DNA of 63,447 nucleotides, counting the filler, from Collodictyon triciliatum (Eukaryota), in NCBI GenBank assembly GCA_043381765.1. It is 8 parts of 8 records of this genome, joined end to end, with 100 filler letters (N's around TTAATTAATTAA, not from the genome) between each part and the next. Parts side by side here need not be neighbours in the genome. Positions count along the whole stretch, not along the records: positions 24,954 to 32,824 come from JBHJMP010000585.1; 7 more parts are not named here. One strand, given 5' to 3'. This document shows positions 30,820 to 32,824 of this stretch, in pieces (position 1 is the stretch's first letter; each line of letters starts with the position of its first letter). A model generated the notes under the pieces. It was not told the DNA's origin. It ran no database searches and saw only the letters and a program-made list of their open reading frames with translations. The position numbers and the translations under genes were made by a program.

Positions 30820-31251
30820 ATGATGAACTCCCAGAGATCAAGCTCGTCGCGCTCGTCGGGGTATTCCAACCCTCCCAACTCTTCACTCGATGCCCCAACC
30901 ATGGAGTTGGCCCGACGCGAGGTGAACAAGTTGCAGAGCGCTGACTTGATGGAGCTCCGAGCACTCAGGGTTCCTCCCCCACCCGTGGCCCAGGTTATGG
31001 AGGCCGTGTGTATCCTGCTCGGAGCCGAGCCAACATGGGTCAGTTCTAAGGCGCTGTTAGGCGAGCCAAACTTCAAGAGTAGCCTCCTGGCGTATGATGT
31101 TGCTAGGGTCTCTCCGAGTATGATTGCTAAGCTGCAAAAGTTCATCGACGACCCGAATCTTACGGCCAAAGCAGTTGGCTCGTGGTCATTGACGGGGCGA
31201 ACACTGGCTGTGTGGGTGCGTGCTGTTTTTAGCGAAGCCCAGGACCTCTGA
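30820..31251 (+). CDS. Small protein consisting essentially of a dynein heavy-chain microtubule-binding domain (143 aa; alternative in-frame start at 30733)
   Basis: ARREVNKLQSADLMELRALRVPPPPVAQVMEAVCILLGAEPTWVSSKALLGEPNFKSSLLAYDVARVSPSMIAKLQKFIDDPNL...LAVWVRAV matches the dynein stalk-tip pattern. Stop TGA at 31249-51. Confidence 0.85.
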   Translation: MMNSQRSSSSRSSGYSNPPNSSLDAPTMELARREVNKLQSADLMELRALRVPPPPVAQVMEAVCILLGAEPTWVSSKALLGEPNFKSSLLAYDVARVSPSMIAKLQKFIDDPNLTAKAVGSWSLTGRTLAVWVRAVFSEAQDL

Positions 31252-32324
31252 GTTGGGTAGCTTTATCTTCGACACATCTGGGCCAACAAGATATTCCTAA
31301 TCACCCCCTATGCACCGTGCTGTAGCGCTGATAAAATATAAAAAAAAAATGACCAAGATTAGATGTCGGTGGGGGACTATTGTCTATTTTTCTTTTGCCC
31401 TAACAAAACTGTTGGTATTTCGGCTATTGTACCAAAAAAAAAAAAACTTATCTATTTCCTCAGGGGATGTAGGTAGAATTTCTTTGCCTGTCACGGCGCG
31501 TTTGAGGCGGTGATGCTTGGAGGGAGCGCCTCCAGCCGAGAAAATTGGAGTTAAGGCTCTCCCAAGAAAAATAATAAATAATATGGTTTGGTTCCCTAAT
31601 ATAAACCCAGAGGATTACCAGGCTGGCGTTCCCGTGCAGCTCCTCGTCCTAAAAGTGCATAGCATTCTCGGGCTGACCCGCCATATTGTGCAAGATGATT
31701 CGTGGTTCTCTCAACATTAATACTATGGCAAAATGCTTTTCTTCTCATGTCATCTCGAGTGCCATTTGGAAATACTTCCACAAATCCCTGTAGTGCGACG
31801 ATTGGCCAATACACCACGACAAAATACTGATTATTGATGCAGCCTGGGCTGGCACCGAACCACTGCATTTAGAGCACAGCACGCCTTGTGGGACGAAAGC
31901 AGAGAAAGTCATGCGACCATTACCGGAATTTAGTGAGAATTTTACGCAGCATCCACTATGTGCTTACTATTCAGTACATATTGATATAATTACATAATAT
32001 TATATTTTTATCTTATTAAATTAGTATATGTAGCTATTTGATTTGAGCATGATGACTAACTGTAGCAATTTGTATTATTTCCAGAAAAGAATTTGTTCAG
32101 GTGGAGCCTTTAAAGCAGGATGTTGCCACTAACTCCGATCTGCCACATCACGCAGCCGTTGCATCGGCGCCTGTGTATCGATATTCGCAACAAAGAGACT
32201 AACAAGAGAACATAGAACGTTTTCGCTGCCTCCTTTGCCCCATTTTTCCTTTTCTCCTCCTTTGTCTCATCTCTTCTTTTTTTTTCTTTTCCTTCCTCCC
32301 AGTAATATAAACATCTACACAGGA

Positions 32325-32824
32325 ATGAATGCAGAGCAAGAGGATGCGCAACTACCGCCAGGACTTATTCAGGCTTTGCAAGCTGCGATACATTCTCTAA
32401 ACACGCTTTGCAGGAGTGATATCACAGAGCTCAGGGCGTTTTCAAGGCCTCCAAAAGCAGTGGAGCTTGTGCTCGAGGCTGTCTGCATTCTGCTTGGAGT
32501 CGAACCGTCTTGGGCGAATGCAAGAAAGCTTCTGGGCGACCCTTCATTCCTGAGCCAGCTTTTACAATTCAGTCGGGATAATATCTCACAAGCCACCCTT
32601 CGAAAGCTACAAAAGTACATCGACGATCCGAACCTTTCACCTGAGGCTGTGGCGCGTGTCTCAAAGGCAGCCCACGGGATGATTCTTTGGGTTCGAGGGA
32701 TGTTCATGTACGCTCAAGTGAGAGGCGAAATTGTGAGGTCGAGACCGCAGTCAGCGAGGCAGGAGCCGCCAGCTCGAAATACAGAGCACCATGCAGAAAG
32801 TGCAGGGCCAGTTACACAAGAAAT
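32325..32824 (+). CDS. Second dynein-MTBD protein (paralog), 3' end lost at the linker
   Basis: AAIHSLNTLCRSDITELRAFSRPPKAVELVLEAVCILLGVEPSWANARKLLGDPSFLSQLLQFSRDNISQATLRKLQKYIDDPNLSPEAVARVSKAAHGMILWVRGMFMYAQV. The ATG follows a putative short 5' intron (32219-32322). Confidence 0.85.

Follow-up and report, generated by a model that had tools for sequence, protein, structure and literature searches.

To our knowledge, the microtubule-binding domain (MTBD) of dynein has been studied only as the tip of a 4000-amino-acid motor, with its affinity slaved to ATP hydrolysis via the stalk. Whether this domain also occurs as a protein of its own was the question raised by two open reading frames (ORFs) in a 63,447-nucleotide stretch of the genome of Collodictyon triciliatum (assembly GCA_043381765.1; hereafter the window), which a first-pass annotation, made from the sequence alone, had described as tandem genes for stand-alone dynein MTBDs. 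The window consists of 8 contigs chained by N44-TTAATTAATTAA-N44 linkers, and adjacency across the linkers is meaningless. Both ORFs lie on the plus strand of a single contig (24954-32824; JBHJMP010000585.1). Gene 1 (30820-31251(+)) is a complete coding sequence of 143 amino acids plus stop with a single MTBD, as identified from the ORF, AlphaFold2, Foldseek and matching contigs. Gene 2 (32325-32824(+)) has 166 visible codons, and its ORF, likewise seen in matching contigs, reaches the contig end without a stop. We consider it likely that the two genes at this locus are separate and are diverged paralogues, both belonging to a motor-less family whose building block is the dynein MTBD. What is new here is a known domain in the context of an undescribed motor-less family.

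Domain identity and flanking sequence

Both ORFs are genuine dynein MTBDs, far beyond chance. A distance of 1505 bp separates their ATGs, which lie on the same strand, and Pfam, phmmer against PDB sequences, AlphaFold2 and Foldseek bore out the initial description of two same-strand ORFs 1.5 kb apart with full MTBDs. The gene 2 protein matched Pfam PF12777 (MT) with 63.4 bits (E 2.5e-17), the match being confined to the tip (profile positions 90-216 of 344), and passed the 24-bit gathering cut-off of this family; gene 1 failed by sequence, and its fold was backed by AlphaFold2 and Foldseek. When gene 2 was compared with PDB sequences, 89 distinct chains were matched at E <= 1, and the names shown for these matches were all dynein heavy chain or fragment, save two chains from axoneme entries that were named otherwise. 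Flap-less inner-arm types led the matches (Chlamydomonas chain, E 2.2e-30; DNAH6, 2.6e-30; DNAH2, 2.4e-27). This order, with the DNAH6 and DNAH2 types at the head, fits the resemblance to DNAH2-like inner-arm chains noted at the outset.

Unit 1 spans 30901-31242(+) (amino acids 28-141, the phmmer envelope) and consists of a short stub of the stalk helix CC1, the helices H1-H6 and a short stub of the stalk helix CC2; AlphaFold2 placed helices at residues 28-142. Unit 2 lies at 32358-32741(+) (amino acids 12-139) and has a 15-amino-acid CC1 stub and a CC2 stub of about 10 amino acids, as determined by Pfam MT, PDB phmmer and AlphaFold2. The mean predicted local distance difference test score (pLDDT) was 88.6 for the gene 1 model, in which blocks exceeded 92 from around residue 30 onward, and 90.3 for the gene 2 model, in which the helices from H12-26 through H114-139 were above 90. 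Foldseek with the gene 1 model gave a best TMq of 0.77 and a root-mean-square deviation of 1.4-1.5 A over 117-118 columns, and all of the matches listed were dynein MTBD, stalk or heavy chain entries. With the flap-less inner-arm MTBDs (DNAH6/DNAH2 type, PF12777) the units share the fold, the succession of helices from H1 to H6 and, as core residues, E, PP, W, S and W; gene 2 shares about 45% sequence identity. The heavy-chain-conserved columns (n = 48; threshold, 70% or more of heavy-chain units) were retained at 35/48 positions in gene 2 and at 28/48 in gene 1. The gene 1 and gene 2 proteins were 45% identical to each other (51/114; E 6e-35), and at this protein identity the synonymous sites between the two genes were saturated.

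Engineered MTBD constructs (PDB 3ERR, an SRS-MTBD fusion; 6RZA, 6RZB, 2RR7 and 6KJO) ranked high among the structural matches of the gene 1 model. These constructs are of similar size, consist of an MTBD with short stubs, and bind microtubules in vitro with an affinity set by fixed registry. They are laboratory truncations or fusions, whereas the protein here is a natural product with shorter stubs (about 10-15 amino acids) and no fusion clamp.

We then turned to the rest of a dynein heavy chain. Seven full-length heavy chains were compared with the whole window by tblastn, and 14 matches at E 1e-16 to 1e-31 were obtained, all on the two MTBD segments. AAA-ring, stalk or other dynein sequence was not detected within the window, as the remaining 21 tblastn matches were all at E >= 0.88. 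The first-pass annotation had likewise recognized no AAA ring or long coiled coil, and this part of it stood. Its further argument that the scaffold left no room for a heavy chain did not hold: what had been read as one scaffold is several short contigs joined together, and gene 2 breaks off where its own contig stops. The six-AAA+ ring with its linker and C-terminal domain was absent from the window, in which gene 2 is visible only to 32824, and the long antiparallel stalk (CC1 and CC2, about 100 amino acids each) was absent from gene 1 and from the visible part of gene 2. In the AlphaFold2 models, H1 of gene 2 was preceded by a helix of 15 residues, and the last helix extended to residue 139, followed by a disordered tail; gene 1 had about 10 residues before H1 and ended 7-8 residues past H6. 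The CC2 start VxPKRxxL, which is kept in the heavy-chain fragments of our alignment, was missing from both. Heavy-chain-like sequence outside the MTBD was not found over the whole gene 1 protein or over the 166 visible amino acids of gene 2. The remainder of gene 1 is a Ser-rich N-terminal leader of 27 amino acids (30820-30900(+)), predicted to be disordered (pLDDT 51-59 for amino acids 1-20), and the stop follows 7-8 codons past the last helix; both features had been noted at the outset. The remainder of gene 2 is a low-complexity tail or linker (32742-32824(+), amino acids 140-166), predicted to be disordered (pLDDT 64-66) and without a stop. An artificial contig join follows at 32825-32924 (N44 + TTAATTAATTAA + N44, from the assembly of the window), with a different contig beyond.

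Gene boundaries and sequence constraint

Assembled contigs sharing words with the locus were obtained from four runs (X1, X2, X3 and X8). X2 and X8 were labelled freshwater metatranscriptomes, and all habitat-labelled runs sharing words with the locus were freshwater or related aquatic (lake, aquaculture, sediment). X3 carried a loose end that we take to be a template-switch oligo, suggesting cDNA. In gene 1, X1 record 1 (567 nt) and X3 record 11 (533 nt) spanned 30818-31308 with 10 differences, followed by diverged sequence; X2 record 9 spanned 31124-31273, and X8 record 19 spanned 31212-31363 without other letters and with one 1-nt gap. The gene 1 stop (31249-31251(+)) was crossed colinearly by contigs of 4/4 runs, and no joint was reported anywhere. 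This stop is TGA here and TAA in X1, X2 and X3 (31250 G>A), so that a stop is kept in the related strains. The flank at 31252-31363(+) was present in RNA-library contigs and represents the minimum 3' untranslated region.

At the other end, the point at which the X1 and X3 contigs departed from the genome was precisely the CAG that immediately precedes the gene 1 ATG (30817-30819(+)), a likely 3' splice acceptor. Short 5' introns had been proposed before both ATGs; the break at this CAG supported only the one in gene 1. The loose letters before 30818 numbered 23 in X1 and 10 in X3, and the two versions differed by one letter. Reading the X1 letters by eye, we found an in-frame TAA 7 codons upstream of the gene 1 ATG. 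The 23-nt leader had no match within the window at up to 3 mismatches, and a shorter pattern had one chance-level match. Its best gapped look-alike, at about 23412-23442(-), lay at the 3' end of an intron of the ordinary kind, complete with CTAAC branch site and AG. Three origins are therefore conceivable for the loose letters: a 5' exon, a spliced leader, or the diverged or unspliced intron end of a relative. Because the contigs cross the stop colinearly, the stop is kept, and the upstream break falls at a CAG with an in-frame TAA, gene 1 was taken as a closed unit of 143 codons, which is probably transcribed.

These boundaries bear on whether the two segments could be exons of one tandem-MTBD gene, like that of Diphylleia rotans P0011, with the gene 1 stop spliced out. 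The units are close together on the same strand with no recognizable gene between them (6 ORFs in the interval gave nothing below E 0.04 in Pfam), and the relatives described below are mostly tandem arrays (68 among the best 150). However, the contigs of all four runs continue colinearly through the stop into the 3' flank with no joint reported, the stop is retained as TAA in relatives, and the sole strong GT donor near the gene 1 end (TGG/GTGCGT) would delete the last helix. Moreover, unit 2 begins with an ATG of its own, preceded by a pyrimidine tract, and at the N-terminus it is similar to relatives such as P0038. A single gene is thus very unlikely, and two separate genes remained the preferred reading.

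In gene 2, X2 record 10 spanned 32416-32824 and continued past the contig end. The contig cover from the four runs left out 30728-30815 and 31364-32415, the latter including the gene 2 start, which is uninformative either way. The sequence CAA/GTGAGA at 32718 was considered as a gene 2 intron donor and rejected for the main form, as X2 record 10, X1 record 7 and X3 record 16 were colinear across it with the frame open. Since these contigs are colinear across the GTGAGA, the gene 2 frame runs on into the low-complexity tail; the residues following 32718 align with the start of CC2. A further contig, X3 record 17 (900 nt), was 94.5% alike over 55 nt (32666-32720), diverged at 32720 and continued with 845 nt unlike the window, in which we read by eye a stop 5 codons past the divergence point. 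This contig could represent a paralogue or another splice form. X1 record 2 and X3 record 12 matched 32448-32507 only, followed by 181 nt unlike the window that by eye resembled another MTBD. These three records were alike over only 55-60 nt, at 90-95%, and more paralogues or splice forms seem to exist in related strains.

The differences between the window and its relatives were then sorted into synonymous and non-synonymous changes. In the gene 1 MTBD there were 4 synonymous and 0 non-synonymous differences, and in the gene 2 MTBD 4 synonymous and 1 non-synonymous (M126I). The gene 1 leader had 0 synonymous and 2 non-synonymous differences (P19S and N20I), and the gene 2 tail 1 synonymous and 2 non-synonymous. 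Both MTBDs summed gave 8 synonymous versus 1 non-synonymous difference over about 168 synonymous and about 528 non-synonymous sites, whereas leader and tail summed gave 1 versus 4. That 8/9 changes in the MTBDs are silent is unlikely under neutrality (p ~1e-4, binomial, with transition bias ignored). The selection on the open copies that had been argued for at first fits this comparison with related strains.

The same counts speak to the reading in which both segments are decaying relics, that is, retro-copied or duplicated dynein pieces that are perhaps transcribed and have no function. Gene 1 has diverged strongly, falling short of the Pfam cut-off and being changed at 20/48 conserved positions, and the sequences are short and isolated, as relics might be. 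On the other hand, both frames are open and the stop is kept, silent changes prevail inside the domains and not outside them, AlphaFold2 confidence is above 90 throughout both domains, and similar proteins, both short and tandem, are found in distant lineages of protists and in their transcriptomes. We gave relics little credence. Together, the results supported gene 1 as a complete, probably transcribed and constrained stand-alone MTBD protein without a motor or a long stalk.

Motor-less relatives

An exhaustive HMMER search with gene 2 returned 4851 proteins at E <= 1e-3. Classes were assigned for the best 150 of these, using domain envelopes and BLAST against MTBD-masked heavy chains. Multi-MTBD proteins with 2-6 units accounted for 68 of the 150, and 0/68 had heavy-chain-like sequence elsewhere; 23 were single units without a heavy-chain flank, and 59 were heavy chains or their fragments, each with one MTBD. 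When P0003-P0019 were searched with Pfam, PF12777 was found in 17/17 and an AAA or dynein-motor family in 0/17. The HMMER search thus recovered the short or motor-less MTBD proteins that the first-pass annotation had anticipated. Its claim of motor-less, stand-alone MTBD proteins stood for gene 1 and for the wider family, but not for gene 2, which is cut at the contig end.

Several architectures were represented among these proteins. P0081 (120 amino acids) and P0108 (124 amino acids) start with Met and end a few residues past H6, like gene 1, and by their sequences look like complete single-MTBD ORFs. At the other extreme, P0153 has nine MTBD units in 1568 amino acids. The tandem proteins had a median period of 168 amino acids and a median linker of 52 amino acids (93 neighbouring pairs). 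Such an arrangement of at least two units with linkers of about 50 amino acids was not seen at our locus, where gene 1 has one unit and a stop, and gene 2 one unit and a linker-like tail up to the contig end. Fusions were also found. P0024 consists of a propeller, two MTBDs and a C-terminal coil; its propeller residues 3-315 aligned with residues 36-345 of a POC1 chain in PDB (E 3.2e-57), which was its best natural full-length match. A C-terminal coil similar to that of P0024 closes P0038, P0047 and P0006, and P0003 starts with a CFAP97 domain (35.9 bits versus a cut-off of 25.6). Members derived from transcriptomes included Diphylleia rotans P0011 (386 amino acids, two units), Picozoa P0005, P0294 from the dinoflagellate Tripos fusus, and the MMETSP transcript P0304. 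Judged by these sequences, motor-less MTBD proteins form a family that extends far outside this organism and is widespread in protists.

The class counts also bear on the possibility that the two segments derive, as exons or as pieces left by the assembly, from one or two ordinary axonemal inner-arm heavy-chain genes, the remainder of which lies in gaps or unplaced contigs. A flagellate is certain to have true inner-arm dyneins, the assembly is fragmentary, gene 2 stops at a contig end, and gene 2 is equally similar to DNAH6-type MTBDs and to motor-less units. Yet 59/59 heavy-chain matches had a single unit, and the locus has two units 1.5 kb apart. In addition, gene 1 is closed by a stop that is kept in relatives and passed by contigs, and neither segment has CC1 upstream or CC2 downstream, the flanks being a Ser-rich leader and sequence that does not form a coiled coil, with gene 2 lacking VxPKR. 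The tblastn comparison found no other heavy-chain sequence in the window. This explanation is highly improbable overall, and for gene 1 it is already refuted, barring a trans-splicing product.

For gene 2, the relatives indicate what may lie past the contig end. Its tail aligned with the post-MTBD linker of P0047 (tblastn, 107-266 versus 32358-32822), and its nearest relatives have further MTBD repeats or the POC1-like C-terminal coil after a similar linker. Because the contig end cuts gene 2 and its nearest relatives carry more modules after the linker, gene 2 cannot be called stand-alone; it may carry more repeats or another module. When P0024, P0038, P0047 and P0006 were compared with the window by tblastn, only the MTBD segments were matched, with one stray match at E 0.32, so that no WD40 propeller or C-terminal coil was detected in the window. 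The missing 3' part of gene 2 could hold the POC1-like coil.

A FastTree phylogeny of 230 units placed the heavy-chain units in one 73-leaf clade (support 0.70). Both units of the locus fell in motor-less clades, unit 2 in one of 12 leaves (0.72) with P0081 as sister and unit 1 in one of 6 leaves (0.80). This placement outside the heavy-chain clade is consistent with membership in a motor-less family, but not decisive.

Other searches added little. A word-index search with gene 2 for proteins of near length gave 34 candidates, 0 of them at E <= 1e-3, and one for longer proteins gave 1 match, a true heavy-chain fragment with AAA_9. In a metagenome scan, P0002 gave 593 pattern stretches, of which 0 were confirmed, and P0001 gave 6 distant loci with 29-37% identity; L003-L006 had heavy-chain-like flanks, and L001-L002 were single units near contig ends. 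No metagenome locus found in the scans with P0001 and P0002 extended gene 2. A search of the ESM Atlas yielded only clusters of short MT-domain fragments, mostly animal. A full-text literature search, which did not extend to most subscription journals or to supplements, found no description of dynein MTBDs outside heavy chains, and the terms 'dynein heavy chain', 'dynein-like' and 'stalk' were absent from the main text of a 2026 review of microtubule-associated proteins.

The reading of the locus as two genes of a motor-less family has to be weighed against a number of points. Gene 1 scored only 20.4 bits against PF12777 (E 3e-4), under the gathering cut-off, and its 20/48 changed positions include several Lys and Asp (S40, V51 and V94-A95-R96) and a Tyr (E139); because of these changes, the affinity of gene 1 may be low or its partner different. 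The 3' end of gene 2 is incomplete, so that a larger architecture is possible, and the per-unit score of gene 2 was about 118 bits with DNAH6-type heavy chains and 110-124 with the best motor-less units. Regarding expression, the RNA nature of X1 and X3, both from a single study, is a guess, DNA can occur in RNA libraries, the contigs show neither transcript ends nor levels, and no RNA contig was seen over the 5' part of gene 2 in the four runs. The differences counted for constraint may mix strains and close paralogues, although paralogues would leave the direction of the result unchanged. Finally, the tree had modest supports (0.70-0.80), was midpoint-rooted and drew on the 150 matches nearest gene 2 only, and the heavy-chain unit P0139 sat outside the heavy-chain clade.

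Genomic surroundings and biological meaning

The upstream neighbour of gene 1 on the same contig is a PP2C phosphatase ORF (27516-28703(-); Pfam PP2C E 2.9e-16), which lies outside the system. It is divergently oriented and 2.1 kb away, in agreement with the original placement of a divergent PP2C gene about 2 kb upstream. The 2.1-kb intergenic region contains a long AAT/ATT trinucleotide repeat at 29300-29400 (poly-Asn in one frame) and, just upstream of gene 1, two copies of a direct repeat of about 44 bp at about 30620-30710. X1 and X3 contigs piled up on the latter (summed word depth of about 380-410), and 37-42 records fitted two places; it is probably a dispersed repeat.

On other contigs, an ATP-dependent PEPCK gene with at least 3 exon-like ORFs was found at 9458-12093(-). 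Among named sources, Diphylleia rotans had the closest PEPCK, 92% alike over the conserved part, and dinoflagellate PEPCKs came next at 86-88%. The PEPCK and the aquatic habitats of the matching runs fit a flagellate in or close to the Diphyllatea. A 759-amino-acid ORF at 13310-15589(-) had Roc GTPase and COR-A domains (ROCO-type protein). A 2-kb island at 55722-57928 (contig 53614-61016) had 68% GC versus 32-40% elsewhere and long ORFs open on both strands, one of which (640 amino acids) had a PRK/uridine-kinase domain (E 1.2e-19); the island may be an unusual gene or foreign DNA. Rfam gave 0 matches over the whole window. The seven artificial joins are identical (8221-8320, 17816-17915, 24854-24953, 32825-32924, 42878-42977, 53514-53613 and 61017-61116), and extra gaps of N100, N67 and N10 occur inside contigs, each beside simple repeats.

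How such proteins would work can be proposed from the fold. Like the dynein tip, each MTBD unit would bind in the tubulin intradimer groove on the outside of the microtubule lattice; microtubule binding by these units is what we infer from their likeness to that tip. Inner-arm heavy chains have an AAA+ ring, a linker and a stalk of about 100 amino acids in each of CC1 and CC2, none of which is present here. Unlike in those chains, the MTBD is single at this locus or tandem in relatives, and ATP-driven registry control would be impossible. Because there is neither an AAA ring nor a long coiled coil to shift the helix registry, the affinity of a unit would be fixed and not ATP-cycled, and the proteins may act as static microtubule-associated proteins. 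The multi-unit relatives (period of about 168 amino acids, linkers of about 52) may act as multivalent lattice binders or cross-linkers. Since relatives carry POC1-like and CFAP97 fusions, a location at centrioles or cilia is suggested.

Alternatively, the proteins could be real and motor-less, with the domain re-used for another partner such as free tubulin, a dynein stalk or another helical protein. Several conserved charged positions are gone from gene 1, whereas gene 2 keeps the core and many surface positions (35/48), and the fusion partners of relatives are microtubule proteins of the centriole and cilium (the POC1-like propeller and the CFAP97 domain). We regard another partner as unlikely for the locus as a whole, with more weight for the more diverged gene 1.

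Assuming that the units do bind microtubules, their logic would be like that of repeat-type microtubule-associated proteins (tau/MAP2/MAP4 repeats, doublecortin (DCX) tandem domains and TOG arrays), in which a small tubulin-binding module is used singly or arrayed via disordered linkers. Fold and origin are unrelated, however, and the predicted site here is the motor footprint and not the tau or DCX sites. A different loss of motility has been described for DNAHX, a non-motile dynein heavy-chain subfamily, in which the whole heavy chain has insertions said to impair the stalk-MTBD (bioRxiv 10.1101/2025.01.18.633724). The outcome is opposite, in that the whole chain is kept there and only the MTBD survives here.

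As a tentative and broader proposal, which may well prove wrong, the MTBD could have been freed from the motor long ago and have given rise to an undescribed, widespread class of protist microtubule-associated proteins, comprising singles of 120-145 amino acids, arrays of up to nine units and POC1-like or CFAP97 fusions. Such proteins would sit on the motor footprint of microtubules, whether centriolar, ciliary or cytoplasmic, with a constitutive affinity free of registry, and might stabilize or cross-link the lattice and gate the access of dyneins and kinesins to it. Annotation pipelines are likely to mislabel genes of this kind as dynein heavy-chain fragments. The 143-amino-acid gene 1 protein is small enough for immediate expression and for binding and cryo-EM work, and a natural protein consisting of the tip only would be a natural experiment on the MTBD without registry control. 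Arrays and fusions of the MTBD with centriole and cilium proteins would add a new microtubule-binding module, and motors might have a natural competitor or road-block in motor-less MTBDs.

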